NCBI GenBank assembly: GCA_963827275.1
Contig: CAWHAA010000005.1
Coordinates: forward strand, 736,001-800,000
DNA length: 64,000 nt
Reading direction: 5' to 3'
DNA from: an uncultured Spirochaetota bacterium
Lineage (GTDB): Bacteria; Spirochaetota; UBA4802; UBA5550
Shown: piece by piece, positions 1 through 19,981 of the stretch
Layout of the letters: every line of letters starts with the position of its first letter
How positions within the stretch are numbered: position 1 is the first letter of the stretch
Notes under the pieces: generated by a model
Told to the model about the DNA's origin: nothing
Databases searched by the model: none
The model's input: only the letters and a program-made list of their open reading frames with translations
Made by a program: the position numbers and the translations under genes

Positions 1-237
1 GTGCTTCTCTCCGTCAAGAAGGAGAGCCTGAAGCCTGAAACACGGGTCCTGGTAGCAAGCTCAAGCCGCAACAAGAAGGCCGAACTGACCTGGAAGGACG
101 TGTCCGACGAATCGAACATGGTCATCCTGGCGCCCACCAAGCAGGGCAGCCTGAAGCTCGCGTCGGCAATGAAGGGCCTCGATACCCGCGAGCAATGGGT
201 CCAGGACGTTGACCGGATCGAGATCGTCCGTCAATGA
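1..237 (+). CDS. 5'-truncated hypothetical protein; C-terminus resembles the end of Oxidored_molyb (sulfite oxidase)-like domains
   Basis: Open frame from the window edge, ending ...EQWVQDVDRIEIVRQ (cf. KWVKWLTRIEV-type ends). Stop overlaps the next start (ATGA). Confidence 0.55.
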   Translation: MLLSVKKESLKPETRVLVASSSRNKKAELTWKDVSDESNMVILAPTKQGSLKLASAMKGLDTREQWVQDVDRIEIVRQ

Positions 238-780
238 CCGAGCGCTACTTCTCCACGTTCCAGCTCTTCCTGCTCGCCCTCTTCGCGGCGCTCATCGTCG
301 TGGCGAAGATCGCTCTGCACCTTCCCCTCCAGCTCTCCGGTCACTCCGGGATCTTCTGGATGGCGGTGATCATCGTCGCCGCGCGGGTGGTGCCGAAGCG
401 GGGCGCGGCAAGCCTGGTGGGGCTTACGTCGGGCATCATGGCCGCGTTCCTGGGCCTCGGCGACCTGGGCGGCCTGAACACCCTCTTGTCCTACACGATG
501 GCGGGCGTCGGCGCGGACCTCGGACTGCTCCTCCTCCGCGACCCTGAAAACTACGCGTGCGCGGCGCTTGCCGGCACGTTCGGCCACCTGTGCAAGTTCA
601 TGGTGAAGTGGGCCTTCGGCATGATGTCGGGCGCACCGGTGGGGTTCGTCGCCCTCGGCCTCGCCAAGGCACTTGTCGGCTATCATCATCTTCGGCGCGC
701 TGGGCGGCTTTTTAGGGGCCCTGACCCTCAGGGCGCTCAGGCGGGCGGGGTTTTTCACCTATTTGATGGAGAAAAAGTAA
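234..780 (+). CDS. ECF transporter S (substrate-binding) component; apparent frameshift near 685
   Basis: ~180 aa, highly hydrophobic, LPLQLSGHSGIFWMA...KRGAASLVG pattern. Correcting one indel gives ...GYIIFGALGGFLGALTLRALRRAGFFTYLMEKK* ending at 780. Confidence 0.7.
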
Positions 781-876
781 ATATCCGCATCAATCTCATC
801 ATATAGCAAATTGTCTTCATTGCTCAATTCGTTGAAATACAAAGGCAAAGTCTTCTCAAAAAATCAACCATAAAAA

Positions 877-1032
877 TGTCCGCCTGCAGGGCGGACAAAC
901 ATATCGGGCGTCTGTCTGAAATCGAATCCCGCGAAGCGGGTTCGATGAGTTACGCCCGTAGCCAGTCGCGGCACTTGAGCGACCGGGATGGGGGAGCGCG
1001 AGGGGGAAGGACGGAGTGTCCTTCACCCTCGC
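877..1032. other. Cluster of four stem-loops between convergent genes (candidate structured RNA/REP-like element plus terminator)
   Basis: Inverted repeats 877-884/890-897; 905-911/952-958 enclosing 921-932/936-946; 962-969/979-986; and the 998-1032 hairpin. Confidence 0.5.
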
Positions 1033-1033
1033 C

Positions 1034-3541
1034 CTAAAGCTTCGCCTCGAATCCGCCGTAGCACATAAACCCAGGCCCGGGATTGAACGGGTCCGGGTTG
1101 TAATCATCGAGGATATTTTTAAAGAGCAGATACAGGGTAAAGTGCTCCCACATCTCCTGCGCCACCCGCACGTTCAGGTTGAACCGGTCATGCAGCCGCA
1201 CCGCGGTAAAAAACTTCCTCGAATAATAGGCCGCGAACGGCGACGTCGGCTCGGGCGGCCGCACCTGCTGGGCGTACATGACCTGGTCGATAAGCGCGGT
1301 GCCCCAGAGCCCGAACGAGGTGCCGGTCGTGAATGAAAACCGGACGTCGGCGATGACCTGGTGGGCGGGCGTGTTTTCAAGGAATATCCCCTTGTTCACC
1401 GCCTCCTCCCACGAGGTGTCGCGGTTCCTTGCGTGGAGATAGACATAGGAGAGCGATGCATTGATGTCCATGACGCCGGCGATATCCTTCTTTTCGTACG
1501 ATACCGCCGTCTCCAGCCCGTGCGAGTCGACCCGCGAGATGTTCACCGGCGGCTCCTCGCCCCCGGCTATTTTTTCGATGCGGTTCTTCACGATGCTGAA
1601 AAAATAATCAGCGCCTAATTCGATTGACCCGTCCAGCAGGCTGAATTTCGGCCCGGCGTTGAAGTTATAGGACCGCTCCGGCCTGAGGCCCCGGTCATAG
1701 AGAAGGTACGAGACCTTCTCGTACTCGCCCAGGGTCGGGAACCTCGTCTTCATGGAGAACGCGCCCCGGAGCTTCATTAGGTCCTTTACCGCGTCGAATA
1801 CGATGCCCGCCACCGGGTTGAACGAGTCGCGCGTCCCCCAGATGAGCGAATCGTCCTTGACCATATACGCGCCGGTGTAAATATACGAATAATCAGCCGG
1901 CCGCGCTTTATGCGTGACAAAGTCCTGCGCGTCATAGGAGACGCCGGCGGTGATCTTCAGCCGGTCTTTGATGGATATCTCATCCTCTATGGCAACGGTG
2001 AGAAAATACGCCTTCAGGTAATTGACCTTGTACTTCGACATGCCGTAGAGCCTGTATGTCTCAAAGCTCCAGAGCGGCGACTTCGCCTGCTGGCGCGCGT
2101 CCATCTCGTCGCCGCGCCAGAGCAGGGCCATGGAAAGCCTGTTCCAGGACGCTATCCTGACCGACGGGTACACCTGCACGCCGTAGGACACATAGGTCTT
2201 GTAGTCATACACGGGCTCATAGTAGGACGCGTCTTTTGAAAGGACCGCGGGCGGGTCCTTGGCATAGATGTGTGCGTTGTCGAGGTAACCCTCCTGCTTC
2301 GCGTAGGTCTGTGAGTAGAAGCCCTGCAGCTTCACGCTGAATATCCTGTGAGTGAATTTCAGGTAGGGCGACACGCTGAACGCGTACTTCTCGGGCCAGG
2401 CAAAGGACCGGTTTGCCAGCGCGGCCTTTTTCAGGTCTTTGGGGATCATAAAATTGAAGACCGGCTCTCCCCATGCCAGGTTATTGATCTTGTAGTCTCC
2501 GTAGCACCGGTTCTGGTAGGTGCTGGTATGCCCCGATCCGTAATTGAACCGCGCTGCAACGCCGACATCAAGGGCGTCGTTCAATTCATATCCCACCCGC
2601 GCGGAGGCGTTGTATTTCCTGTAATCGGCATGGTTCCAGCGTCCGGCATCGAGGAGGTACTGCCATGGCCCCGGTATGTTCATGGCCGCGGGGCCGGCGC
2701 CATATACATAATAGCGCACCAGCCTGTTCAGCCAGTCGAGCCGCTTCGCGCGGGTCAGGCTCCGTGATGGGCGGTATCCGTCCGAGTTCTGCGCCGAGCC
2801 GGTGACCCAGCCGTAGAAATTCTTGTAGGGTCCTCCCGCTGCCGCGTCGAAGGTATAGCTATTGTACATACCGTATTCGCCCCCGCCCTGCACGAACAGC
2901 CGGTCCGGTTTTTTCGAAACGATGTTGACCGCGCCCGCGGCGCCGCTCGTCCCGTAGAGCGCGGACGACACGCCCCGGTTCACGTAGATGCGCGAGATGT
3001 TCTTCACCGTGAGGTCGGAGATGTCGATGTCGGTCGCATACACGTCGGCCACCGGCACGCCGTCCACCAGGATCGCTATCTTGTCCTGGTCGAAGCCGCG
3101 CATCTTCACGCGCTGGTGCCCCTTCTGGTGCGCCTCCACCTGCACGCCCGGCACCGTGGCGAGCGCCTCGTCGAGCGTCCGGTCCCCGTGCGCCTTCAGG
3201 TCCTTCTGTTTTAATTCGGTGGTAGTGGCGGCCTCGTCGATGTGGGCGATGGCCTCGCCCCGCACCACGATCTCGCCGATGGTGAAGACGCCGTGCTTTC
3301 CGCCCCTTCTCTTCCCGCGCTCGCCGTCTTCGCCATCTTTTTTTACGTCAGCGGGCGCATCTGCTTTCATATCTGCGGCGCTCTCAACAGCCGGCTTTTC
3401 TGCCGCCTCATCGGCCGGTCCAGGCTTTTGCGCGAAAAGCGGCGGTGATGACGCGAGTGCGATTATCGCCGCCAGAGCGGCAAGCACGACGCGCGCTTTC
3501 GCGCGCGACGTGCTTCTGAATGCTACCAGAGTCCAGCCCAT
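1034..3541 (-). CDS. TonB-dependent outer-membrane receptor (copy 1)
   Basis: 835 aa. Signal peptide, TonB-box-like GEIVVRG, plug motifs (LATVPGV, MRGF, ILVDGVP, RGVSSALYG..GAVNIVSKKP), LRPERSYN and KNILD barrel motifs. Confidence 0.92.
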   Translation of the reverse strand: MGWTLVAFRSTSRAKARVVLAALAAIIALASSPPLFAQKPGPADEAAEKPAVESAADMKADAPADVKKDGEDGERGKRRGGKHGVFTIGEIVVRGEAIAHIDEAATTTELKQKDLKAHGDRTLDEALATVPGVQVEAHQKGHQRVKMRGFDQDKIAILVDGVPVADVYATDIDISDLTVKNISRIYVNRGVSSALYGTSGAAGAVNIVSKKPDRLFVQGGGEYGMYNSYTFDAAAGGPYKNFYGWVTGSAQNSDGYRPSRSLTRAKRLDWLNRLVRYYVYGAGPAAMNIPGPWQYLLDAGRWNHADYRKYNASARVGYELNDALDVGVAARFNYGSGHTSTYQNRCYGDYKINNLAWGEPVFNFMIPKDLKKAALANRSFAWPEKYAFSVSPYLKFTHRIFSVKLQGFYSQTYAKQEGYLDNAHIYAKDPPAVLSKDASYYEPVYDYKTYVSYGVQVYPSVRIASWNRLSMALLWRGDEMDARQQAKSPLWSFETYRLYGMSKYKVNYLKAYFLTVAIEDEISIKDRLKITAGVSYDAQDFVTHKARPADYSYIYTGAYMVKDDSLIWGTRDSFNPVAGIVFDAVKDLMKLRGAFSMKTRFPTLGEYEKVSYLLYDRGLRPERSYNFNAGPKFSLLDGSIELGADYFFSIVKNRIEKIAGGEEPPVNISRVDSHGLETAVSYEKKDIAGVMDINASLSYVYLHARNRDTSWEEAVNKGIFLENTPAHQVIADVRFSFTTGTSFGLWGTALIDQVMYAQQVRPPEPTSPFAAYYSRKFFTAVRLHDRFNLNVRVAQEMWEHFTLYLLFKNILDDYNPDPFNPGPGFMCYGGFEAKL

Positions 3542-3567
3542 ACTGCAGACTTTTTCCGCTGCTTCGC

Positions 3568-4938
3568 TTAAGGAGCCACAAACAGACTGCCCGATTGCAG
3601 TTGCCAGTAACCATCGAAAGTGACTGATAACGGATTCGCACCGGAGTTTATTGTCAATGTCGAGGCCGTGCTGGTATATCCCACGCCATTATAAAGAATA
3701 TACCGGTCATACCTGCCGTCAATATTGGTGCCAGTTCTATAATCATAGAATACAAGCACATAGTAAGAACCGGGAATTATATCCGCTACATCAATGGTGG
3801 CTGTACCGCCCGTTGTGGTGACAGGGCTCCCCGAAACGCCGGTGTAAATCGGCATGTACTGGTTGCGGGTTCCCGTCCCCAGCACACTGTATAAATACAC
3901 ACATATGTTCATGGTCCCCCGGTTCGCATCGTCAGGAGGAATAGGGCCATTATAGGTTGCACTCACGGAAAGAGTTCCACTTTCTGCCGTCGTAAGATAG
4001 GCTGCATCAGTCTGTAATACGCTTGTATCACCGAAGGTAATATCCGGCAATGTCATGTCTGCATTTACTACTATGAATTGTTGCGCGTTCGCCCCATAGG
4101 GCGTGCCGGCAAAAAAAGTATACGGATCGTTCTCACTGTCGGGAGCAGTACCCTTGACTGAATCATAGAAAACCAGAGCGTAATAACTCCCCGCCAGTAC
4201 ACCGTTCACGGGAATCGTATATTCAGTGCCGGGCGTTATTTCTGCCGTTGTGGAGGCAGAATTAATGGGTAATGCCGGATTGGTCGTCGAAGTGCCCGGT
4301 GTCGAAGTATTGTAGAGATACACATAAATCCTCTTGCTGGCCTCGGATTCCGGCAAAGCTGCGGTGCCGGTATACGTGGCGTTAACTGTTACTGTATACG
4401 TAGTTGTTGACATAAAATAACTTTGAGTAAGAAGCACATTAGCATCAGTAAATGTTATTCCGCTCAATGTCACATCGCCGCTGATATTCACCTTTGAAGC
4501 AGAGGTTGTGTATGGGGTATTAGTGTACAGGACATAGGGATCGGTTTGATTGGCTTTATTTTCATTGTCGCCCCCATTAAGATCAAAGAAAACAAGAACA
4601 GAATAGTCGCCATCGCAGATACCGTTAATTGTAATACTGCTCAATCCCCCACTAACGATCGGGTCGGTCGTCGATCCTCTATATACCGGCGCCGGGTCCC
4701 TGGTAGTGAGGCCAAGACTCCTGTATAAATACACATACATCTTGCCAGTTCCCACCGGTGTACCGGTTAGCGTTGTTGAGCCGGTATAGGTCGCCGTCAC
4801 GGTCAGGGATGACTCGCCCTGACATTGTTGGAGAAAAAGCAGCGGATTGATCTCGTTGCTCTGTTCCTTGCAGGATGCGGCAAATAATATTATTCCAATG
4901 CACGCCAGTTGTATGATCTTTTTCATTCCAGCCTCCAT
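3568..4938 (-). CDS. Surface lipoprotein with three tandem ~140-aa repeats (DUF2141-like)
   Basis: Lipobox FAASC. Three repeats of V.ATY.G...YVYLY...G.Y.(V/A)LVF(Y/F)D...D.Y..(Y/F)...Y...ITF. Lower GC than neighbours; co-oriented 27 bp upstream of receptor 1. Confidence 0.8.
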   Translation of the reverse strand: MEAGMKKIIQLACIGIILFAASCKEQSNEINPLLFLQQCQGESSLTVTATYTGSTTLTGTPVGTGKMYVYLYRSLGLTTRDPAPVYRGSTTDPIVSGGLSSITINGICDGDYSVLVFFDLNGGDNENKANQTDPYVLYTNTPYTTSASKVNISGDVTLSGITFTDANVLLTQSYFMSTTTYTVTVNATYTGTAALPESEASKRIYVYLYNTSTPGTSTTNPALPINSASTTAEITPGTEYTIPVNGVLAGSYYALVFYDSVKGTAPDSENDPYTFFAGTPYGANAQQFIVVNADMTLPDITFGDTSVLQTDAAYLTTAESGTLSVSATYNGPIPPDDANRGTMNICVYLYSVLGTGTRNQYMPIYTGVSGSPVTTTGGTATIDVADIIPGSYYVLVFYDYRTGTNIDGRYDRYILYNGVGYTSTASTLTINSGANPLSVTFDGYWQLQSGSLFVAP

Positions 4939-5195
4939 TTTATATCATTACAGAGTAAAACTGTAATAATTTCACTTTATGTCAATGATAAATTGTAGCT
5001 ATTAGTTAACAAATAGCTGTATTTATATCTATATTTTTTTATTTTCACTATTAATTACATTTAGTTACTAATTGTTACAAATTATTACAATTTTCTTGAC
5101 AAATTAATTCCATAAATAATGTTTTACATATGTTTAATATAACATAATTGGCCGGCTTTTATCAGCCATTATGCCTATGATCTTGTGGAGGATTT
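4939..5195. promoter_or_regulatory. AT-rich divergent promoter region with phased direct repeats
   Basis: TTGACA on + at 5096-5101 and on - at 4980-4985. Four 10-bp-period repeats at 5051-5090. Inverted repeat ATTACAG-N7-CTGTAAT at 4947-4967. Confidence 0.6.
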
Positions 5196-7670
5196 ATGAG
5201 AAAATTCATTATCGGTATCATTGCATTGTCTGCAGCGGCCGTGATCGGCGCCATGCCGGTCTCGGCGCAGGAGAAAAAGGGGGCTGAAGTGAAAGACCAG
5301 CCCGCAGCGGAGCAGGAGCAACAGCAGCCCGCTGAAGAAAAAAAGGACGTTACGGCACAGAAGTCTGACGTCTATACCATCGGCGAGATCGTCATCCGCG
5401 AAAAGGCGATCGCCAACGTGGAGGACGCCGCCACGACGACCGAGCTTACGCCGGAAAGCCTGAAGGCGCGCTCCGCGCATACGCTGGACCAGGCGCTCGA
5501 GACAGTGCCGGGCATGATCGTGAAGCAGGGACAGAAGGGCCAGATGAACTTTGACATGCGCGGGTTCAGGCACAACACGCTCGCCATCCTCGTGGACGGC
5601 CTCCCGTTCGAGGAGGTGTATGACGGCGGCGGGGGCGACATCTCCCGGATCCTGGTCATGAACGCGTCGAAAGTCGTCGTGAACCGGGGCACCTCGTCCG
5701 CGCTGTACGGCTCGCGCGGCGCCTTCGGCTCCATCAACGTGGTCACGAAAAAGCCGGAGCGCCTGAACTTCAAGGGCGGCGTCGAGGTCGACCAGTACGG
5801 CGGGTTCACCGTGAACGCATCGGGCGGCGCGGCATACAAGAATTTTTATTTCTGGCTCTCCGCCGCGGTCATGAAAAACAACAGCTACGAGATATCGAAC
5901 CAGCTCGGAAGATCGAAAGCGCTCCGGTGGATGAACCGGCTTCATCCCCTGGTACGTGTACGGACATGACCAGCGGATCATACACGCCGGCAATCGACCA
6001 TATTCACGGCGATGGGAATGGAATATATCCTCGACGACGACAGGTGGAACCACACCAATTCCATGAAATACTACGCGTCGGGCAAGGCCGGGTACACGGT
6101 CAACGACAATATCGAGTTCGGCCTGTCCGCCTCATACTACCAGGGCGAGATGAACTTCAACGGGTTTGAGATCAGCAGCTACTCGTCATACGTCCTGGAC
6201 GGGACCTGGGACGATCCCCGGAACAGCGAACATGTTCCAGAACCGCGCCTGGACACTGGCCCAAGGATTACCGGGTCAACGTGGCCCCCTACCTCACCCT
6301 CGAATTCGGCGACTTCTACATGAAGGCCATGTATTACTTCACCAGACAGGCGAACGTCCTCGAGGGATGGACGAACCAGGCGCAGTCAGCCATGTTCGAC
6401 AGGGGCAAGATGTCCGAGCACGACGAGACAAGCAACGGCTTTTACATTTATCCCTCGTATAAATTCGCGCCGTGGAACAAGCTGAACGCGCTCGATCCAC
6501 TACCGCATCGACCAGTTTTTAGAAATATAAAAAACGCCTTGCGCCCGTACGCGTCCGGCACCGCCAACTGGTATACGCCCTGGTTCAAGACGGCCGAGAT
6601 GTCGGCAAAGTACGTCGATGTCGCGCTGGAGGATGAATTCAAATTCAACACGCCGGCGGGCGACCTGCGTTTTCCCTCGGCATCTCGTATGACGCGCAGA
6701 AGCTGTCGACAAACCGGGGCGGCCGCTACAACATCAACGGCGACGAGGACATCACCGGGCTCCTTCGCTCGACCGCATGAAACCGGAGAACACCTCCCTG
6801 ATATGGGGCACCGGCGACGGGTTCAACCCGGTCTTCGCGCTGGTGTACGAGCCGGTCAAGGACATGCTGAAGATCAGGGGCACCTTGTCGCAGAAGATCA
6901 AAGTTCCCGACCCTGCACGAGTACGCGGATTCCTCCGACTATATCGACGAATACTTCATGAGCGATCCCGGCGCTGCTGCCGCTGGTGATCAAGCTGAAC
7001 CAGATCAAGCCGGAAACATCGTACAACGCCAACGCGGGATTCGAGCTCGACCTCCTCGACAAGAGCCCTGAACCTGAGAGGGCGATTATTTCTACGCCTT
7101 CTATAAAAACAAGATCGAGAGCGTCTCCGACCCGAATGCCGCGGTGGGCAACCAGACACGCTATACGAACATCAAGGGGCGGGAGGTACACGGCGTGGAG
7201 AGCCACGTCGGCGCCACGATAGGCAAAAACCTGCTGAAAATCCTCGACATGAAGCCCTCCGCGACCTACGTATTCACCGCACGCGCGCGACTGGTACGAC
7301 GCGCCGGTGGTGAAGGGGGCGAAGGTCGCAGGAGACCCCGGCCCACCAGCTGATACTCCAGCTGAAGCTGGATTTCATATCGGGAACGGGCCTCAACCTC
7401 TGGACAACGCCACCTTCAACCAGATGATGTACGTGCAGCAGATACCGACGACGCATACTCGGCGTCCGGTCTCTCGTACTTCCACGCAGGTGTACACGAC
7501 CAAGAAACTCCACGATCCCTTCATGTTCAACATCACGGATATCGCAGCGGATCGTGGACCACTTTGAGCTCTGGGTGATGTGCAAGAACATGCTCGACGA
7601 CTACAATGCCGACCCCTTCAACCCGGGTCCCGGCAGGACCTGGTATTTCGGCGGGGACGCGGAGTTTTAA
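5196..7670 (+). CDS. TonB-dependent outer-membrane receptor (copy 2), split by multiple apparent indels
   Basis: Signal peptide, TIGEIVIR, plug motifs. Successive fragments align with receptor 1 (RWNH, WGT.D.FNP, KPETSYNANAG, KLHDPF). Ends DYNADPFNPGPGRTWYFGGDAEF* with a terminal Phe. Confidence 0.85.
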
Positions 7671-7685
7671 TCCTTGACAAAGCAG

Positions 7686-7720
7686 ACCGCGTGGGGCGAC
7701 ATGCCTCCACGCGGTTTTTT
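7686..7720 (+). terminator. Intrinsic terminator
   Basis: ACCGCGTGGGGC-loop-GCCTCCACGCGGT followed by a T-tract, just after the receptor 2 stop. Confidence 0.65.
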
Positions 7721-7762
7721 CATCACGCACCACTATCTGACAATTCATTGACAGGTACAATC

Positions 7763-8831
7763 ATGAAACAAGTCACTATGCATACTAACCTACCGCCCTT
7801 GCTGCTCTCATGCGTTGTCCCCTTCACCGGCTGCGGGCAGAAGATCACCGAGATCATGACGGTCACCGGGGCGACGCCGCTCGCGCTGCAGGAATCCGTG
7901 CCTTCCGGCAGGTCGCTCACTATCACCGGACTGGTCAAAAAGGAATATGATCTTTCTTCGTACACGCTGAACAAGTTCGCGACGACCCGCATCCGCACCA
8001 GGGAAGTTTCCGCCGGCAGGGGAATTCGAGGGGGCATATGTGTATACCGGCATCCCGCTCTACAACATACTCGAAGGGAGTGTCGCCGCAGAAGCCGAAA
8101 AGCGCCGTCTTCGACAGGCCGCTTGACATCCTTGTCACGTTCCATGCCGCTTCCGGGAAAACGTCACGGTTCAGCTACTGGCGAGCTGATCATGACCGAC
8201 GACCGCCATCCCTTCACGCTCGCGTTCCACCGCCGGCAGGTGCTCCCGCATAAAAACCCGGAACAATACACGAAAAACAGATATAAAGACAATATCCAGG
8301 GGCTCAGGCTCATCTGCCCGCGCGACCCGGACACCTCGCGCTACCTTGATGACGTGACGAAGATAACCTTTTCAGTGTTTAAGACGCCGGACGACATCCT
8401 CCCCGTTACGAAGAAAGGAAAGAAATGCTCGTCAGACGGAATAACGGTCATCCGCGGCGGCACCGCAGGGCCGGCTTCGTTCGTGAACGTCGCCAGGTCA
8501 AAGGCAGCCGGCTGGGTGCGCATCGGCCACGGCCAGGGGTTCAAGGGGATATCGGGGGCGGAGGGATACGAGCCTCCGTTCATTCCTTAAAAAAAACTTC
8601 AGGGATTGCGGTCCTGACAGCTTCTTTATCTTCGTCGCCTGCGACGGGTACCGCGCCCTCTTCTCCGGCCGCGAGATATTCCTCTCCGGCGACGGGGCGT
8701 CATACATGATCGTTGACTCGCTTGACGGGAAGAAGGCGACCGGCAACTACATGCTCGCGCCGGTGGACGACTATTTCGTGGACCGCGACGTGTGGGGGCT
8801 CACCCACGTCGTCATGCTCGACGTAAAGTGA
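7763..8831 (+). CDS. Putative lipoprotein with Oxidored_molyb-like fold(s); apparent frameshifts
   Basis: FTGC lipobox-like. Stitched frames give LTITGLVKKEYDLS...AYVYTGIPLYNILEG, LRLICPRD..RYLDDVTKI, FVACDGYRALFSGREIF; stop at 8829-8831. Confidence 0.6.
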
Positions 8832-8838
8832 GGGGGCC

Positions 8839-9585
8839 ATGTTCACGACCAACAACCACCTGTATCTCTATGTCGCGGTCGGCATGTTTGCCGTCTCCCT
8901 CGCCCTCTGCCTGGCCAGGGCGCGGTCGGCCGGGTTGACCGCGTTCCTTCCCGGCCTGGCCCTCTATTCCCTCTACCTCGCCGGCAGGGCATGGATCGCC
9001 GGGACCTTCATTCCGAACCCGGTGATTGAGGGGCCCTACCTGCTCCCCTGGTGCCTCGGCGTCATCGCGCTGCTCATGATCGCGCGGCGCGACGGCCGCT
9101 GGTGGTACGTCCTTGTCCCGCTCCTGGTCTTCTCAGGGTTCGCGCTCTATTACGCGAGGGGGATCATCCCCCCGACGCCGAACAAGCTGACGCCGTGGAT
9201 CATCGCATTTTTCGTCCCGGAGGTGTTCGCGCACGCCTGCTTCTACTGCGGCGCGGTGTTCGCCGCGTTCCTCCTCGCCGGACGCGAGCGGGCTGAAACC
9301 TTCCACCGGTTCATGGTGTGGGGCTTCGTGCTCTACTCCGTGGCCCAGGTGACCGGCGCGGTATGGTGCTACCTTGGCTGGGGCAACACCTTCCAGTGGG
9401 GGCCCCGTCACATGAGCTCCGCCGCGGTCTGGCTCATCTGTGCCGCCTATATCCACCTGAAATACATCCCCGGCTGGAACGGCAGGCGCCGGGCCTGGTT
9501 CGCGATCGCCGCCGCGGTCGTGGTGCTCGCGGTGACGAGCAATTCTTACCTGCGCGAAATGAACTTTCCCCGGATCGGAGGCTGA
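8839..9585 (+). CDS. CcsA/ResC-like (cytochrome c assembly family) membrane protein, divergent
   Basis: About 8 hydrophobic segments. TGAVWCYLGWGNTFQWGPRH...WLICAAYIHL corresponds to the WWD domain and the following His. Confidence 0.8.
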   Translation: MFTTNNHLYLYVAVGMFAVSLALCLARARSAGLTAFLPGLALYSLYLAGRAWIAGTFIPNPVIEGPYLLPWCLGVIALLMIARRDGRWWYVLVPLLVFSGFALYYARGIIPPTPNKLTPWIIAFFVPEVFAHACFYCGAVFAAFLLAGRERAETFHRFMVWGFVLYSVAQVTGAVWCYLGWGNTFQWGPRHMSSAAVWLICAAYIHLKYIPGWNGRRRAWFAIAAAVVVLAVTSNSYLREMNFPRIGG

Positions 9586-9586
9586 C

Positions 9587-10444
9587 ATGATACGAAAACT
9601 CTGGAATGTAATCGGCGATATCAGGCTCTCCTTCTGGCTGCTCCTTGCCGCAGCGGCCCTGTTTTTCACCGGGTCCTTATATACATCACTCGATTTTTCC
9701 TATTTCAAAGCGATGAACGAGCTCAGGATACAGGACTGGCTGTCCCGGGAATTGCCGGCCCGTCCCGGCGCCAACTGGTGGCTGGTCCCGCTTTTTGCCG
9801 TTCTGTTCCTCCTCGGGGTGAATACCGTCATCTGTACGCTGAATCGCGTCATCGCGCTCTTTTCAGCACGCACGAAAACCGACTACCGGTTCGTACTAGC
9901 GCTCCTCCCCTCGGTGGTCCACCTCCTCTTCATCACGGTCATGCTCGGTCACGCGGTGACCATAACGATGGGGTCCTGGAACAGGCTCCCCCTGGCCGAA
10001 GGGGCCGTGCTGCAGATCGACCCGTCAGTCCCTCCCCTGACCGTGGGCACAATCAAGGACGAATTCTTCCAGGAAGGATCATTCCTCGCGAACAGGATCA
10101 GGCAGACCACGGTCCCGCTTGCCGGCGCCGGCGACGAGATACGGCTCTCCTACCTCGATTCCATCAAATATCATGGATACCGACTCCACCTCGACATGGT
10201 GAAGAAAAAAACCCCCGGCAATCATGAAAACCGGCACGCGCAGATGGCCGACAGCAAGGAGACCTGCAACAGGTCGGAAACATTCCGGTCGGGTAAGCGA
10301 ACGCGGGAGCCGGCGCAGGAGCTTTACCTCCTTGCCATTGCAGACCCGGGCCTCCCGGTAATCCTTGCCTCATTTTCGCTCATTCTTGTCATAATGACCT
10401 GGTATTTCATAGAATCAATGCGGCGTCGCGACCGGGAAGCATGA
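9587..10444 (+). CDS. ResB/CcsB-like membrane protein, short
   Basis: N-terminal TMs, WWLVPLF..NTVICTLNR, VVHLLFITVMLG (conserved His), and ADPGLPV before the last TM. Confidence 0.75.
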   Translation: MIRKLWNVIGDIRLSFWLLLAAAALFFTGSLYTSLDFSYFKAMNELRIQDWLSRELPARPGANWWLVPLFAVLFLLGVNTVICTLNRVIALFSARTKTDYRFVLALLPSVVHLLFITVMLGHAVTITMGSWNRLPLAEGAVLQIDPSVPPLTVGTIKDEFFQEGSFLANRIRQTTVPLAGAGDEIRLSYLDSIKYHGYRLHLDMVKKKTPGNHENRHAQMADSKETCNRSETFRSGKRTREPAQELYLLAIADPGLPVILASFSLILVIMTWYFIESMRRRDREA

Positions 10445-10540
10445 GCAGGGATACGGTTTTATCATGGCGCATTTTATGAGTTGAAAAAAATACTCGTTGT
10501 TTGTATATTTGTTACATCTCTAAATTAAGGAGGTGCGGCA

Positions 10541-10750
10541 ATGAAAATCAGCGCCCGTAACGTGATCAAGGGAACGATAACAAAGATCGTCCAGGGCTCG
10601 GTGAACAACGAGGTATACATCGGGCTCCCGGGCGGGAACGAGATCGTTTCCATAATAACAAAGACTTCGGCGAAAACGCTCGGCCTCAAGAAAGGCAAGC
10701 AGGTGTACGCGGTCGTCAAGGCCTCGAACGTGATGATCGCGGTTGACTGA
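10541..10750 (+). CDS. mop: Molybdate/tungstate-binding Mop protein (single TOBE domain)
   Basis: MKISARNVIKGTI...SIITKTSAKTLGL..G..VYAVVKASNVMI, the classic molbindin signature. RBS AAGGAGG. Confidence 0.93.
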   Translation: MKISARNVIKGTITKIVQGSVNNEVYIGLPGGNEIVSIITKTSAKTLGLKKGKQVYAVVKASNVMIAVD

Positions 10751-10752
10751 CC

Positions 10753-11658
10753 ATGCCTGAAGAATTCATGAGCACCAAAGAAGTGGCGGAGTACCTGGGG
10801 ATAAACGAGAAGCAGGTCTATGCCCTCATCAAGGCCGGGAAAATGCCCTGCACCAGGGTCACCGGGAAATGGGTGTTCCCGAAAAACATCATCGACGAAT
10901 GGATCAACAAGAACGCCAGGGGCAGCCTCAAGCCGGTCGCGACAAGCGATCGTGACCCGGGCCGCATCCTGGCGGCGGGGAGCAACGACCCGGTCCTTGA
11001 CCTCCTGATAAGCCAGAATTATGACAATGTCAATATCTTCTCCTGCAATACGGGGAGCACCGAGGGCCTCCGCCTCCTGTCCGAATCCAGGGCCGATATC
11101 GCCTGGTGCCATCTTTTTGACCCCGAAACAGGGACATACAACATACCCTACATCGAGTCGCACTTCGCGGACCGGAAGGTCGCGATGGTCCACCTGTTTT
11201 ACCGGGAGATCGGGCTCCTTGTCGCGCCCGACCATGTAAAAAGAATAAAGAAGCTCCAGGATATTTCGTCCGGTATACGGTTCATCAACCGCCAGAAGGG
11301 ATCGGGCATCCGGCTGTTCCTGGATTACCACCTGAAAAAAGCCGGCATCGATCCCGCGTCGATCACCGGGTATGATAGCGAGGTGTACACCCACTTCGAG
11401 ATAGGGCTGTCAATCCTTGCCGGCAAGGCGGACGCGGGGATTTCCTCCGTGGCGATCTCAAAGCTCATGGGGATCCCCTTTGTGCCCCTGGCCAGGGAGA
11501 GCTTCGACATGGTGCTCGGCAAGGACACCTTCTTCGAGAAGGGGATCCAGGCCTTCATCGAGACACTCCAGTCGAAAAAATTCAGGAAGACCGTGGAGCC
11601 GCTCGGCGATTACAGCTTTTCAGATTCGGGGAAAATACTCTATTCAACGGCGGGGTGA
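10753..11658 (+). CDS. Excisionase-type HTH (HTH_17) plus PBP-like molybdate/tungstate-sensing transcriptional regulator (TaoR-like)
   Basis: MSTKEVAEYLGINEKQVYALI..G.MP..RVTGKWVF, then AGSNDP, GSTEGL, FINRQKGSGIR, YTH..I...G.ADAG. Confidence 0.88.
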   Translation: MPEEFMSTKEVAEYLGINEKQVYALIKAGKMPCTRVTGKWVFPKNIIDEWINKNARGSLKPVATSDRDPGRILAAGSNDPVLDLLISQNYDNVNIFSCNTGSTEGLRLLSESRADIAWCHLFDPETGTYNIPYIESHFADRKVAMVHLFYREIGLLVAPDHVKRIKKLQDISSGIRFINRQKGSGIRLFLDYHLKKAGIDPASITGYDSEVYTHFEIGLSILAGKADAGISSVAISKLMGIPFVPLARESFDMVLGKDTFFEKGIQAFIETLQSKKFRKTVEPLGDYSFSDSGKILYSTAG

Positions 11659-12752
11659 CCGGCCCCCTGCCTGGCGGAAAAGCCTGAAATGTAGCTTACA
11701 ATCTCACCGATATTCATGACCATGTCCGCCGCGCCGATTTTTATCGCTTCCCGCGGCATGCCGAAGACGACCGATGACGCCTCGTCCTGGGCCACCGTTT
11801 TCGATCCGGCCTCCTTCATCTCGAAAAGGCCGGCCGCGCCGTCCGAGCCCATCCCCGTCAACAGGACGCCGACCGCATTGCGCCCCGCGACCTGCGCCAC
11901 GGAACGGAAGAGCACGTCCACGGACGGCCGGTGGCGATTGACCGGCAGGCCGTCATTGATCTCCACGTAGTAGCCCCTCGCATCAGACCTGAGGAGCATG
12001 TGCCTGTTCCCGGGGGCGATGAGCGCCATGCCGGCGTAGAGCCGGTCGCCGTTCTCCGCCTCCTTCACCGCCGGCCGGGCGAACCCGTTGATCCGGTCCG
12101 CGAAGGCCCTGGTGAATTTTTCCGGCATGTGCTGCACGATAACGATGCCGGGGACATCCTCGGGCAGCCCCTTGAAAATTTCCGCGATCGCCTCGGTCCC
12201 CCCCGTGGACGCCCCCATGGCGATGACCGTGCCGCCCTGCCGCGCCGGGGGCGCCGGCTTCCTTTTGGGGAGTATGACTTCGGCGGAATATTTCTTCAGC
12301 GTATCGGCGGGGGCCCCGGTGATACGGCCGGCGGCGGGCAGGCCCCGCGGCCTCGCCTGGCTTGCCGCTATCACCTTTTCGACCAGCTCGGCGGAAAAAT
12401 CGACCTTCGCGTCATCGCTGCTGATGGCCGGCTTCAGGATAAAATCAACGGCGCCCAGCTCCAGGGCCTTCATGGTGATGCGCGCGCCCGTCTCGGTGAA
12501 GGAACTCACCATGATGACGGGCAGCGGGCGGGCGATCATGAGTTTCGAGAGGAACGTCAGGCCGTCCATGCGCGGCATCTCGAAATCCAGCGTTATGACG
12601 TCAGGGCTGTACTTCTTGATCTTTGTCACGGCGATAATGGGATCGAGCGCGGTCGCGATGACCTCGATCCGCCCCGAGCGAGAGAGCGCTTCCGTAAGGA
12701 ATTTCCGGGCGACCGCCGAATCGTCAATGACCAGGACCTTTATTTTTTTCAT
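11640..12752 (-). CDS. cheB: Chemotaxis methylesterase CheB
   Basis: REC domain plus GASTGG, VQHMP, HRPSVDVLF, LTGMGSDG. Confidence 0.96.
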   Translation of the reverse strand: MKKIKVLVIDDSAVARKFLTEALSRSGRIEVIATALDPIIAVTKIKKYSPDVITLDFEMPRMDGLTFLSKLMIARPLPVIMVSSFTETGARITMKALELGAVDFILKPAISSDDAKVDFSAELVEKVIAASQARPRGLPAAGRITGAPADTLKKYSAEVILPKRKPAPPARQGGTVIAMGASTGGTEAIAEIFKGLPEDVPGIVIVQHMPEKFTRAFADRINGFARPAVKEAENGDRLYAGMALIAPGNRHMLLRSDARGYYVEINDGLPVNRHRPSVDVLFRSVAQVAGRNAVGVLLTGMGSDGAAGLFEMKEAGSKTVAQDEASSVVFGMPREAIKIGAADMVMNIGEIVSYISGFSARQGAGHPAVE

Positions 12753-12783
12753 GCCCCGATCCTGGCCCCCGGCGCTTTCACGG

Positions 12784-13302
12784 TCACCGGCCTCTTTCCC
12801 GGCTCTCGCCGCGGCGGATATACTTCATGAACACCTTCCCGGTTTTTACGTCCATCAGGATCTTGCGGGCGGTGTCTCCTCCCACCTTCATTTCAACAAT
12901 CGGGATGTCTTCCATCTCGATCAGGGCCCGCGCGAGGCGCACGTTGTCCATCGGGATAGTGCTGGAATCGAGGGCGGTGTATATGACGTGACCGCCCCCG
13001 AAGATCTTGGCCACCAGGTCCCTGCGGACAGCGCCCCGCCGCTCCATCATCCCCAGCAGATCGGTTATCGCGCTGACGCCATACCGGGCCGACCCCGCGC
13101 TGAAAAGATCGTTCTTCACCATCCTTCCCGGGAGCATGAAATGGTTCATTCCCGAAATGCGGCGTACCGGGTCGTGCAGGCACACCGCCACGCATGACCC
13201 GAGCAGGGTGCCTATCATCTCGTCCTGGTCGGAAACGTGGTACTCGCCCGGCTGGATGATCGTGATATGCTTGTCAAATTGCCTTCTGTGCGGTATGTGC
13301 AT
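12784..13302 (-). CDS. cheD: Chemoreceptor glutamine deamidase CheD
   Basis: IQPGEY, TLLGSCVAVCLHD, GMNHFMLP, RYG, AKIFGG. Confidence 0.93.
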   Translation of the reverse strand: MHIPHRRQFDKHITIIQPGEYHVSDQDEMIGTLLGSCVAVCLHDPVRRISGMNHFMLPGRMVKNDLFSAGSARYGVSAITDLLGMMERRGAVRRDLVAKIFGGGHVIYTALDSSTIPMDNVRLARALIEMEDIPIVEMKVGGDTARKILMDVKTGKVFMKYIRRGESRERGR

Positions 13303-13303
13303 G

Positions 13304-14152
13304 CTATACGACCTTCCTGTAAATCGTGTTGCCGATAAAGCTGAACCTGTTGGTCAGTCCGGTAAGCGTCTCGGAATGGCCCATGATCAGGTACCCGTCA
13401 TCGTTCAGGAACCTTTCAAACTTTTCGAACAGCTTCTTCCTCGACGCCGTATCAAAATAGATTATGACATTTCTGCAGAATATAATATCAAACGTTCTTT
13501 TCATCGGGTAGCAATCATCGAGAAGGTTCAGCCTGCCGAACGTTATCAGGCCGCGCACCGCTTCCGTCACCTTGAACAATCCCGCATTATCGCCGCGTCC
13601 CCTCTTGAAATACCTCCTCACGATATCGATATCCACGTTCTCCAGTTCCGCCGCGCCGAAGACGCCCGCTTCCGCCTTGCGCAGCACCTGGGTGTCGATA
13701 TCGGTCGCGAGGATCCTGACATCGGGAAACATCCTGTCCCGGAAATATTCGCGGATGCTGATCGCGATGGTATAGGGCTCCGCGCCGTTCGAGCAGCCGG
13801 CGCTCCAGATCCTGAGGGCCTTCCTGCCGGCGCGCTCGAATTCGGGCAGCGCGGTCTCCTTCATGAAGTCAAAATGCCTCGGCTCCCTGAAAAAATCGGT
13901 CTTGTTGGTGGTGATGCAGTTGATGAGATTCACTATCTCCGCATCGTAGTTGTCGGCCAGATAGCCGCAGTATGATTCATAATCGGGGATCTTGAGCTCC
14001 CGGAGCCGCTTCATGACCCGGGACTGCACAAGGGCCTTTTTCATATCGGTAAGATTGATCCCGCTCTCTTTATAGACGACCTCGCGGATGAGATTGAACT
14101 CACCGTCATTGAGCGCCCTGATTCCGGATATGGCGATCACCGCACACCTCAA
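13304..14152 (-). CDS. cheR: Chemotaxis methyltransferase CheR
   Basis: TTNKTDFFREPRHF, IWSAGCSNGAEPY, IFCRNVIIYFD, GHSE. Confidence 0.96.
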   Translation of the reverse strand: MRCAVIAISGIRALNDGEFNLIREVVYKESGINLTDMKKALVQSRVMKRLRELKIPDYESYCGYLADNYDAEIVNLINCITTNKTDFFREPRHFDFMKETALPEFERAGRKALRIWSAGCSNGAEPYTIAISIREYFRDRMFPDVRILATDIDTQVLRKAEAGVFGAAELENVDIDIVRRYFKRGRGDNAGLFKVTEAVRGLITFGRLNLLDDCYPMKRTFDIIFCRNVIIYFDTASRKKLFEKFERFLNDDGYLIMGHSETLTGLTNRFSFIGNTIYRKVV

Positions 14153-14736
14153 TCAAACAGTATTACCCTGCCGTACTTCTCTTTGCTCGTGAACATGTAG
14201 GCGATATACTCGTTCTCAAGCTTCATGAACTCAGAATGATCATGGTTGTTATTCAGGAACTTTCTGTACGAGACCCCGGTCTGGGGGCAAAAGAAAATTT
14301 TTCTCCGCTGGTTGCCGCCCAGGTCCTCCCGGTGAACCTCGATTTTTTCGTAGCCGAAATATTCATGCAGGAACCGTATATTGCCGCCCGAGGTCGCGCC
14401 CATTGACCCGTTGTTGCCGAACACTCCCGCCCCATACAGGATCGCGCGCAGCGACTTCCTCGTGCTGCCCTGCTTCACCATCTCCCCCATGAGCTGCTCC
14501 ATGCAGGCGATGCCCTGCTTGGCCACCTCGTCGGCGACGATCCCCTCCGTGCCCATCGCCCCGGGAAGGATGAAGTGCCCCATCCCGCCGATGTTCCTGA
14601 TCCTGTCATGCAGGCACACCACCACGCAGGAGCCGGTAACGGTCGCAAGGAGGCTCGGGCCCGACGTTGCGAAATAATCTCCCGGGTAAAGGAGGTACAG
14701 GGTTTTCCCGAACCTGTTTGATTCGCTCCGTATCAT
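14149..14736 (-). CDS. cheD: Second, divergent CheD-family protein
   Basis: LYPGDY, TVTGSCVVVCLHD, GMGHFILP, EDLGG..RRKI. Confidence 0.85.
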   Translation of the reverse strand: MIRSESNRFGKTLYLLYPGDYFATSGPSLLATVTGSCVVVCLHDRIRNIGGMGHFILPGAMGTEGIVADEVAKQGIACMEQLMGEMVKQGSTRKSLRAILYGAGVFGNNGSMGATSGGNIRFLHEYFGYEKIEVHREDLGGNQRRKIFFCPQTGVSYRKFLNNNHDHSEFMKLENEYIAYMFTSKEKYGRVILFD

Positions 14737-14739
14737 GCG

Positions 14740-15252
14740 CTATTCCGTTTCGTCCTGTTCCATCGTCTTCATCTCATCGGCGGAAAATATCTCATCGATG
14801 TCGAGGAGAATGACGAGCTTTTCGTTGATCTGCCCGATCCCGGCGATAAATTGCGTGTCTATCTTCGCGGTAAAATGGGGCGTGTCGTGGATGCCGGCCT
14901 CCGGTATCCCCACAACGTCGGACACGGAATCAACGATCATTCCCACCAGCATCTTTTTTATCTCAACGATTATGATGACCGTAAACATGTCATACTGCCG
15001 CTCCTCCATGTGAAAGCGCTTCCGCATATCGACAACGGGCACGACCGATCCGCGCAGGTTGATGACGCCCTTCATGAAATCGGGGCTGTTTGGCACAAAT
15101 ACGATCCCGGTCATGCCGATAATTTCCTGGACCTTCAGCACTTCGACCCCGTAATTCTCTTCGGCAATTACAAAGGTCACGAACTGCCTGTCGGCCTGGA
15201 GGAGGCCTTCTTTCTTTCTCTCGGTTGTATCATTCAGCGCCATGGTATTCAT
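14740..15252 (-). CDS. cheW: Chemotaxis coupling protein CheW
   Basis: YGVEVLKVQEII, KGVINLRGSVVPVVD, GMIVDSVSDV. Confidence 0.95.
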   Translation of the reverse strand: MNTMALNDTTERKKEGLLQADRQFVTFVIAEENYGVEVLKVQEIIGMTGIVFVPNSPDFMKGVINLRGSVVPVVDMRKRFHMEERQYDMFTVIIIVEIKKMLVGMIVDSVSDVVGIPEAGIHDTPHFTAKIDTQFIAGIGQINEKLVILLDIDEIFSADEMKTMEQDETE

Positions 15253-15330
15253 TATCTTCTTCCTCCTTGGTTCATTAATCAGTTAACATATGACATCAGC
15301 TCTAACCGGCCTTTACCGCGGGCGGTCACC

Positions 15331-15702
15331 CTAGCGGATCAACCGCTGGACGACCTTTACCATGTCCTGGTTGCTGAACGGTTTGACGATCCACCCCGAA
15401 GCGCCCGCATCCTTCCCGGCCCGTATCTTCTGTTCCTCGCTCTCCGTCGTCAGCACAAGGACCGGCGTGAACTTGTCGGTCTTGCGAAATTCGCCGATGA
15501 AGGTTATCCCGTCCATCACCGGCATGTTCACATCGACAATGCAGAGCGCCACGTCGTCCCCCTTGCCCTTGATGCCCTTTATCTTTTCAAGGGCATCCGA
15601 TCCGTTCTCCGCATTGTCCATGGGATAGCCCAGGCCCATCAGGGCGTATTCAACGCTCGTCCGTATGGTTGGGGAATCGTCTATTATCATTATATGCTTC
15701 AT
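15331..15702 (-). CDS. cheY: CheY-like single-domain response regulator
   Basis: IIDDS, DVNMPVMDG, LTTES, GASGWIVKPF. Confidence 0.9.
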   Translation of the reverse strand: MKHIMIIDDSPTIRTSVEYALMGLGYPMDNAENGSDALEKIKGIKGKGDDVALCIVDVNMPVMDGITFIGEFRKTDKFTPVLVLTTESEEQKIRAGKDAGASGWIVKPFSNQDMVKVVQRLIR

Positions 15703-15789
15703 ACACCCTACCTCATCTGAATACTATGCTGCCACTGACAGCGTTTAACAAAACCCGCACCCGCTTCGCGGGGGTACGCGCCGCCGCAT

Positions 15790-16050
15790 CTACCCGCCCT
15801 GTTGAATTCCCGCGTACGCCAGGAGCCGCGCCGTCGCCTCGTTCATGTTTCTGATCATGCAGTTCCCGCCTTTACGGGCGCACTCGCGCCGCAACGCGAG
15901 CAGCACCTGCACGACCGAACAATCGACCCGGTTTGCTTTTGAAAAATCAACGATGCAATCGGCTCCCGCCTCGACCGTCAACAGGGCGGTTTCATGCAGC
16001 CTCCTTGACATCTTGACCCCGACATCACCGACAAGCTTGATTGTTTTCAT
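15790..16050 (-). CDS. STAS-domain protein
   Basis: 86 aa, VDFSKANRVDCSVVQVLL pattern; typical position in che operons. Confidence 0.8.
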   Translation of the reverse strand: MKTIKLVGDVGVKMSRRLHETALLTVEAGADCIVDFSKANRVDCSVVQVLLALRRECARKGGNCMIRNMNEATARLLAYAGIQQGG

Positions 16051-16074
16051 GCTCCGCCCTCGCCTTCGCCTCTA

Positions 16075-17814: not shown

Positions 17815-17840
17815 GGATGCTTACCCTTTCTTCACCATCA

Positions 17841-19934: not shown

Positions 19935-19981
19935 GACTGTCTCCCTCGCAGTGTCATTGTCAGCATGACGGGCCGCATTGC

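Follow-up and report, generated by a model that had tools for sequence, protein, structure and literature searches.

A conserved gene island of TonB-dependent receptors, PruR-like proteins and a degenerate CcsBA pair in an uncultured Spirochaetota bacterium is probably linked to the tungsten or molybdenum cofactor

The 64,000-nucleotide window analysed here (positions 736,001 to 800,000 of contig CAWHAA010000005.1, denoted C5) is part of the genome of an uncultured Spirochaetota bacterium (G000; 4.13 Mb, 92% complete). Its first 11,658 nucleotides belong to an island of receptor, carrier, membrane and regulatory genes that is very probably linked to the tungsten (W) or molybdenum (Mo) cofactor. 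Profile searches recovered all the genes that a first-pass annotation had listed for this island, in the same order. The locus begins ~6 kb before the window (729.8–736.0 kb of C5) with tupC, tupB and tupA on the minus strand. These are divergent from an energy-coupling factor (ECF) cassette on the plus strand, where a TiaS-N-like gene is followed by ECF AA' (a double ATPase), ECF T, oxS and ECF S. The stretch at 1..237 (plus strand), previously read as an Oxidored_molyb-like fragment, is the 3' part of an intact gene, oxS, which starts at G000:C5:735728, 272 nt ahead of the first base of the window, and encodes a membrane-anchored protein of 169 residues with a single predicted SUOX/PruR fold. 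The ECF S gene (234..780, plus strand; PF09819, 34 bits against a cut-off of 25.2) encodes 181 residues in relatives and carries a frameshift near 683. On the minus strand lie TonB-dependent receptor 1 (1034..3541), intact at 835 residues, and upstream of it a lipoprotein of repeated domains (3568..4938) with a lipobox-like N-terminus and a weak DUF2141 match. The remaining features are all on the plus strand: an operator/promoter (5055..5100) of four 5-nt direct repeats and a -35 hexamer; receptor 2 (5196..7670), ~830 residues in relatives and interrupted here by several frameshifts; the ox2 lipoprotein (7763..8831), 353 residues in relatives, frameshifted here, with two tandem SUOX/PruR-like domains; the CcsA-like membrane protein CcsA* (8839..9585; PF01578, 40 bits); the short ResB-like membrane protein ResB*, or CcsB* (9587..10444; PF05140, E 1.5e-4 obtained on an intact homolog); Mop (10541..10750), a single molybdate/tungstate-binding TOBE domain (TIGR00638, 82.5 bits against a cut-off of 55); and a regulator (10753..11658) that joins HTH_17 (PF12728) to PBP_like (PF12727). 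Such a union of an excisionase-like helix-turn-helix (HTH) with a tungstate/molybdate-binding periplasmic-binding-protein (PBP) domain is what we take to define the TaoR type. The Plug domains of the two receptors were matched with E-values of 4.5e-22 and 4.6e-19, and tupA, mop and the regulator gene are each single-copy in the genome.

Five genes (the TiaS-N-like gene, ECF T, ECF S, receptor 2 and ox2) are frameshifted in this assembly and intact in relatives. The extra bases at 8079 and 8180 are absent from the contigs of all four other sequencing runs compared, those at 5918 and 5940 from two of the four, and that at 683 from one. Because contigs of other runs lack these bases, the frameshifts in receptor 2 and ox2 are probably sequencing or assembly errors; true decay of this allele is a possible alternative, since the comparison contigs come from related strains, ~90–93% alike over much of 5.2–8.4 kb. 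Read across its two frames, ECF S is 95% alike to an intact homolog, and a spirochaete and a Chloroflexota copy are 75% alike. The repeat lipoprotein gives offset alignments with a homolog, and a short homolog of 189 residues occurs at locus L008.

The receptor, a SUOX/PruR-fold lipoprotein (ox2, or the related oxTP), CcsA* and ResB* form a unit, module 1, that recurs in Spirochaetota, Desulfobacterota and Nitrospirota; its hosts include the cultured Desulfosarcina variabilis str. Montpellier (L018). Scans with CcsA* yielded 38 loci, of which 37 were kept and one, L040 (23% identity), was left out as an outgroup. Among the 37, ResB* is present in 36, a receptor in 30, usually directly upstream, and ox2 in 30, and exbB/exbD/tonB genes often follow. 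A tup, mop or TaoR-like regulator gene lies in the fetched DNA of 21 of the 37 loci; a 'moaA' match at L013, which is another radical-SAM protein, was excluded from this count. The oxTP proteins consist of two PF00174-like domains and a tetrapyrrole-methylase domain that is closest to CbiF-type enzymes. An oxTP scan added 68 loci, Nitrospirota among them, with a receptor in 38, ccsA* in 18, an amino-acid-permease-type transporter in 23 and a W/Mo marker in 21. Chance grouping of the island genes is excluded because the synteny spans three phyla, and the adjacency of homologs to W/Mo genes, on which the first-pass annotation had staked its proposal, holds.

The ECF cassette constitutes a second module. 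A scan for it gave 80 loci, 73 of them outside the spirochaetes and nearly all in Chloroflexota; the S component was found in 79, T in 75 and the ATPase in 74, and S, T and two ATPase domains occur together in one cassette. The matches to TIGR04520/04521 and CbiQ fall below the equivalog cut-offs. A tup, wtp, moa/moe, mop, regulator or kinase-fold gene, the last presumably molybdenum-storage-like, is carried by 53 of the 80 loci, a small SUOX-like domain by 45, and moaA adjoins the cassette in nine. In Chloroflexota, L100 (2985-4085) and 12 other loci encode a TupA whose C-terminus is joined to a SUOX-like domain (one confirmed by a hidden Markov model, 13 read by eye), and the same loci encode single and multi-copy SUOX-like lipoproteins. 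These fusions suggest a hand-over between a SUOX carrier and TupA. The island thus joins two modules that mostly travel apart, since ECF S occurs in 10 of the 103 genomes of the host's order and ox2 in 42 of the 401 genomes of the phylum, every one within that order; the contiguity described earlier is true of this genome, where the cassette stands beside the receptor module, and does not extend to the order at large.

Both modules are preceded in relatives by RF01055, the molybdenum cofactor (Moco) RNA motif. It scores over the gathering threshold 2.5–2.8 kb upstream of ox2, on the same strand, in six of 41 ox2 genomes, and below it near ox2 in two more. Three of the six are the same loci as the three of nine that passed in a first Rfam scan, in which the other six gave no RNA family; a second scan of module 1 found RF01055 in none of 10 loci. 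The receptor is likewise preceded by the motif at two loci of Desulfuromonadales and at three additional spirochaete loci. In Chloroflexota the motif stands ahead of the ECF cassette at eight loci, and at a ninth it precedes a small SUOX gene of divergent orientation. These nine, together with 12 further loci of which seven have no RF01055, were pre-selected with a core-motif regular expression and thus do not represent a random choice; nine other ECF loci and the host contig's own 40 kb yielded no Rfam family. Other RF01055 targets in the order read as formate dehydrogenase (FDH), aldehyde:ferredoxin oxidoreductase (AOR) and FmdE-type genes, judged from N-termini by eye. Stem P3 is missing in all seven riboswitch alignments displayed. 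Regulski et al. link the P3-less form to the tungsten cofactor (Tuco), direct binding not being demonstrated there (PMC2408646).

At the island itself, the operator repeats begin at 5055, 5065, 5075 and 5085, a 10-bp period, directly before the -35 hexamer of receptor 2 (5096–5100), and across homologous promoters they peak at -41/-31/-21/-11. Four repeats arose in none of 20,000 resampled intergenic sequences, and three repeats exist at only two places in the genome. The strict pattern occurs in eight of 103 genomes (reversed control, none), in five of these eight upstream of the receptor 2/ox2 operon. The element at 5055..5100 is a candidate site for the HTH_17-PBP regulator; TaoR is described as a tungstate-responsive regulator (PMC12327845). 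A genome-wide operator scan detected strong sites neither at the three AOR genes nor at moaC, moaE or moeA, and only a weak, reverse-oriented one near an FDH gene (score 18.4), so that a regulon covering the enzymes is not shown. The second-best array of the genome (score 28.3; G000:C5:724860-724930, minus strand; L001 about 8860-8930) lies ~5 kb past tupC and precedes an operon that encodes dehydrogenases of the Fe-alcohol and NAD-aldehyde types. Under control of the same regulator, this operon may provide a substitute for AOR that needs no tungsten.

Receptor 1 is 36% identical to receptor-2 orthologs, and both fall in one spirochaete clade of their own (SH-aLRT 100, quick tree). They reach no NCBIfam cut-off, whether for BtuB, heme or siderophore receptors: the best match scores 95.9 bits against 323.75, and TonB-B12 49.8 against 599.7. 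The first-pass annotation had named BtuB-like or heme-type receptors under Fur or B12 control as the finding that would speak against it, and such control was likewise not found: Rfam detected no cobalamin riboswitch in 49 related loci or the contig's own 40 kb, and in 36 upstream regions the best match to a Fur-box consensus was no better than the shuffle maximum. These results bear on the alternative that the island imports a tetrapyrrole (heme, siroheme or a corrinoid) and is co-regulated with W/Mo genes by happenstance. The CcsBA fold, the CbiF-like methylase domain and the fact that heme receptors are the top sub-threshold NCBIfam matches would suit it, but the receptors match solved BtuB and siderophore receptors in the Protein Data Bank (PDB) in the plug region only, and tetrapyrrole import leaves the SUOX folds and the Tuco-type riboswitches unexplained; we regard it as decidedly improbable.

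The Oxidored_molyb likeness noted earlier for ox2 and oxS stands on profile comparison and predicted folds and not on direct family matches. The PF00174 profile found neither protein, nor anything else in G000, and PDB searches with the ox2 and oxS sequences and with pooled domain profiles gave no significant match. Profile comparison shows full-length homology of ox2 to the PF00174-bearing oxTP proteins (probability 99.9), and the SUOX assignment of ox2 domain 2 rests on its profile homology to a PF00174 domain. The ox2 model (mean predicted confidence, pLDDT, 87) matches SoxC with a Z score of 14.7, SorA with 14.3 and neopterin-bound PruR (7rkb) with 13.4 (root-mean-square deviation (rmsd) 2.3, 121 aligned residues), the first unrelated match having a Z score of 6.0. 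The oxS model (pLDDT 84.4) aligns with SoxC (Z 12.6, rmsd 3.7, 121 aligned) and with PruR 7kp2 (Z 11.4, rmsd 2.8, 116 aligned). PruR is described as a non-enzymatic periplasmic pterin binder without the Mo-ligand Cys, in which the pterin is stacked between a Tyr and a Trp (PMC11194511). Tyr294 (21 of 21 sequences) and Trp342 (19 of 21) of ox2 domain 2 stand at motif-equivalent places to this pair, and C291, also invariant, is close to the presumed pterin site; oxS has no invariant Cys and keeps only a Trp of the pair. Like PruR (PMC11194511; 7rkb, 7kp2), ox2 and oxS have a degenerate SUOX fold, are exported and apparently lack the Mo-ligand Cys, and ox2 domain 2 keeps a Tyr/Trp pair that may correspond to that of PruR; they differ in their tandem domains or membrane anchor, in a Glu for the Pro-Trp motif at the Cys position, and in adjoining transporters. 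In annotated loci the gene downstream of ox2 or oxS is ccsA* or ECF S, and no DcpA-type sensor or signalling gene stands beside them. The predicted resemblance to PruR favours the earlier suggestion that these proteins are cofactor-binding carriers.

The same fold could alternatively mark a real periplasmic Mo/W enzyme, ox2, fed with electrons by CcsA*/ResB* in the manner of MsrPQ (YedYZ) and unrelated to uptake. Such an enzyme would account for the three invariant Cys and the one invariant His of the ox2 alignment and for the heme-type membrane partner next to a periplasmic SUOX-fold protein, an arrangement shared with MsrPQ. MsrP, however, has a Mo-ligand Cys and a twin-arginine signal, and MsrQ is of the ferric-reductase type, not CcsBA. 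The ox2 strand expected to hold the ligand reads T78-R79-E80, with no Cys and with Glu80 invariant (a position taken from a weak SorA alignment and a residue number), and the ox2 alignment shows no twin-arginine signal. The presence of a receptor in 30 of 37 CcsA* loci also speaks against such an enzyme system, which is the least credible of the explanations considered.

CcsA* scores 54 bits with TIGR03144 against a cut-off of 187.6. In an alignment with eight canonical CcsA sequences, the first periplasmic His (P-His1) is Phe in seven of seven aligned members, and the C-terminal His motif holding P-His2 is absent. The WWD motif is lost as well, its second Trp being replaced by Phe, Asp by Gly, Ser or Val, and Glu by His191. 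The membrane His H206 is invariant in all 34 sequences and lines up with its canonical counterpart, and H132 and H191 are further conserved His residues. In ResB*, H112 is invariant (22 of 22) and would, from its position, be equivalent to TM-His2; H122 and C83 are also invariant. In CcsBA, all four His are reported to be needed for synthase activity, and P-His mutants still keep heme in the membrane site (PMC11322641). With the P-His and WWD residues lost and the membrane His kept, CcsA*/ResB*, judged by its residues, is not a cytochrome c synthase and can probably bind heme; a further heme site could be made up by the additional conserved residues H122, H132 and H191. Set against System II CcsBA/ResBC (PMC11322641), the pair keeps adjacent CcsA-like and ResB-like genes and both membrane His, and differs in the missing P-His1, P-His2 and WWD of the aligned members, the extra conserved His and a short periplasmic domain. 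The loss of synthase residues supports the earlier idea of a repurposed CcsBA. CcmF/CcmC-sized PF01578 genes are found elsewhere in G000. Several loci (L031, L033, L034) carry CcsBA* together with a permease of its own, which favours a redox role for CcsBA* over a transport role.

G000, read as an anaerobic spirochaete rich in tungsten-type enzymes, has three AOR-family genes and eight PF00384 matches, AOR-family genes are present in all 41 other ox2 genomes, and the five distant hosts tested have 5–16 AOR matches each. A second W/Mo locus of G000 (C5:360321-365158; L165 10321-15158), between clusters resembling acetyl-CoA synthase/carbon monoxide dehydrogenase and FDH, encodes a wtpABC-like transporter, a ModE-like HTH protein and a stand-alone tetrapyrrole-methylase with a signal-like N-terminus. 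The first-pass annotation had expected the island to accompany missing moa genes, and this is not the case: moaC is kept in 40 of 41 ox2 genomes, for which reason salvage by auxotrophs was rejected as a general explanation in this clade. As the carriers are able to synthesise the pterin, it is probably the metal that is in short supply.

The scavenging of an organic W/Mo complex proposed in the first-pass annotation is supported by the Moco/Tuco riboswitches ahead of both modules in relatives and by the PruR-like folds. From gene content, synteny, regulatory elements, predicted folds and residue losses we infer the substrate and the direction of transport: on balance, the island scavenges pterin-bound W or Mo, mainly for the metal, with a cargo that contains pterin. 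Shortage of W or of cofactor would switch the operons on, through the HTH_17-PBP regulator at the four-repeat operator here and through the cofactor-sensing riboswitch in relatives. The TonB receptors would then import pterin-bound W/Mo, either metal-molybdopterin from other cells or a breakdown product, over the outer membrane, and the non-catalytic PruR-like proteins would hold the pterin in the periplasm. CcsA*/ResB*, which probably keeps a membrane b-heme, would pass electrons, either to maintain the dithiolene-pterin in its reduced state or to release the metal; alternatively, the pair could act as a channel. Freed tungstate would enter through TupABC and be buffered by Mop, and the ECF cassette, where present, would import the pterin moiety or the whole cofactor. 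The full version, in which dedicated receptors, PruR-like carriers and a CcsBA rebuilt as a two-heme wire or pterin channel, with extra invariant His in both subunits, capture environmental metal-loaded molybdopterin or tungstopterin, strip W for TupABC and pass the pterin to ECF, is offered only tentatively and is less likely than not. At its boldest, this capture of metallopterin would extend to a cell that also secretes pterin-dithiolene as a 'tungstophore'.

Several observations weigh against pterin-bound W/Mo as the cargo. G000 has moaC, moaE and moeA, nearly all other ox2 genomes keep moaC, and pterin need not be salvaged. The absence of ox2 from all 10 AOR-less genomes counts for less than it seems, seven of the 10 being one family and so kin rather than independent cases. 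RF01055 is absent from G000 and its genus (0 of 16 genomes), and RF01055 and TaoR-type control fix the regulon, not the cargo, because the same controls also govern plain oxyanion transporters and enzymes. Y294 and W342 are placed like the pterin-stacking pair of PruR by motif position only. No W/Mo marker was present in the fetched DNA of 16 of the 37 CcsA* loci, including full-length ones such as that of Desulfosarcina variabilis. Recurring features (a secreted-looking tetrapyrrole-methylase domain, FmdE, DUF364 and FecCD-type ABC genes) are not accounted for; the methylase domain, like the repeat lipoprotein and the TiaS-N-like gene, falls outside the proposed mechanism.

Some of these observations would be expected if the complex taken up contained no pterin but were a metallophore chelate, thiotungstate or polytungstate, brought in by the receptor, bound by the SUOX proteins and reduced or stripped by CcsBA*, with TupABC then taking the oxyanion. 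The carriers' own pterin synthesis, the TupA-SUOX fusions and the FmdE, DUF364, methyltransferase and FecCD neighbours all agree with this, as does the L040 pair, which sits with DUF4198 genes and suggests that modules of this degenerate CcsBA kind may also handle further metals. A pterin-binding fold recurring at every step and a vitamin-type ECF S co-located with moa genes are nevertheless left without explanation, and we consider a non-pterin cargo rather unlikely. A further alternative reverses the direction of the membrane step: CcsBA* would move a secreted pterin-dithiolene W chelator outward, and the loaded complex would return via the receptors. Canonical CcsBA traffics heme outward (PMC11322641) and bacteria excrete pterins by unknown routes (PMC13259868), and the retention of moa genes in carriers points the same way. 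Both membrane heme ligands are kept in CcsA*/ResB*, however, which suggests heme rather than pterin there, and CcsBA* is present in none of the 73 monoderm ECF loci. Free molybdopterin, moreover, is labile. Export and recapture are accordingly improbable.

Uptake of pterin-bound W/Mo would follow an architecture that is already known. Salvage of B12 and thiamine combines a TonB receptor with an importer of the ECF or ABC type, controlled by a riboswitch for the cofactor. The present system resembles it in the receptor, the periplasmic carrier, the ECF S/T/AA' components and, in relatives, the cofactor riboswitch; it differs in that the riboswitch is RF01055 and not of the cobalamin or thiamine pyrophosphate class, in its SUOX-fold carriers, in the added CcsBA-derived module and in its prototroph hosts. 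The cargo, the carriers and the rebuilt CcsBA would be new. With TupABC/WtpABC, Mop and TaoR-type regulons the island has in common the flanking tupABC, mop and HTH_17-PBP regulator, but those systems handle the bare oxyanion, as do, to our knowledge, the known uptake routes for W, and the searchable literature assigns them neither a receptor nor an ECF or CcsBA component. No description of a system like the present one was found in the literature searched (titles and the starts of abstracts, mostly without subscription papers). How pterins cross the bacterial membrane is given as unknown in a 2026 review (PMC13259868). In syntrophic and sulfate-reducing communities, metabolism through AOR and formate dehydrogenase is limited by tungsten. 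If W/Mo is indeed taken up in cofactor-bound form, cells would be trading or recycling this cofactor among themselves, much as happens with B12, and a CcsBA-derived pair would have a non-cytochrome role. Tractable parts are the 181-residue S component, the small soluble PruR-like proteins and the cultured module 1 host Desulfosarcina variabilis str. Montpellier.

Some features of individual loci were noted alongside. At L040 (7067-13376; Desulfobacteraceae), the distant CcsA-like/ResB-like pair lies between two TonB receptors, with the DUF4198 genes and a FeoB-like gene (by eye). Module 1 at L013 (12419-20746) adjoins a ModE-type HTH protein, a MobA-like NTP transferase, a radical-SAM protein and a C_GCAxxG_C_C protein, a cluster that we take to be molybdenum-cofactor-linked in Desulfovibrio. 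At L017 (4663-6021) and L243, genes for cytochrome c lipoproteins either diverge from the receptor gene or follow the operator pattern seen here. Secreted-looking metallophosphoesterases or phosphodiesterases recur in both modules (L007 12622-13707; L018 7353-8852; L095 2170-3303) and could remove the phosphate or nucleotide from a pterin cofactor that is about to be imported. In the host genome, the interval between ECF S and receptor 1 (window 860-1030) is a repeated intergenic element with 14 further BLAST pieces (77–86% identity in those printed), and for a second, palindromic repeat located between tupA and tupB there are 36 further pieces. After the regulator, an ordinary-looking chemotaxis cluster (cheB, cheD, cheR, cheW, cheY, cheA and a methyl-accepting chemotaxis protein gene, read by eye) occupies 11640-22021 on the opposite strand.

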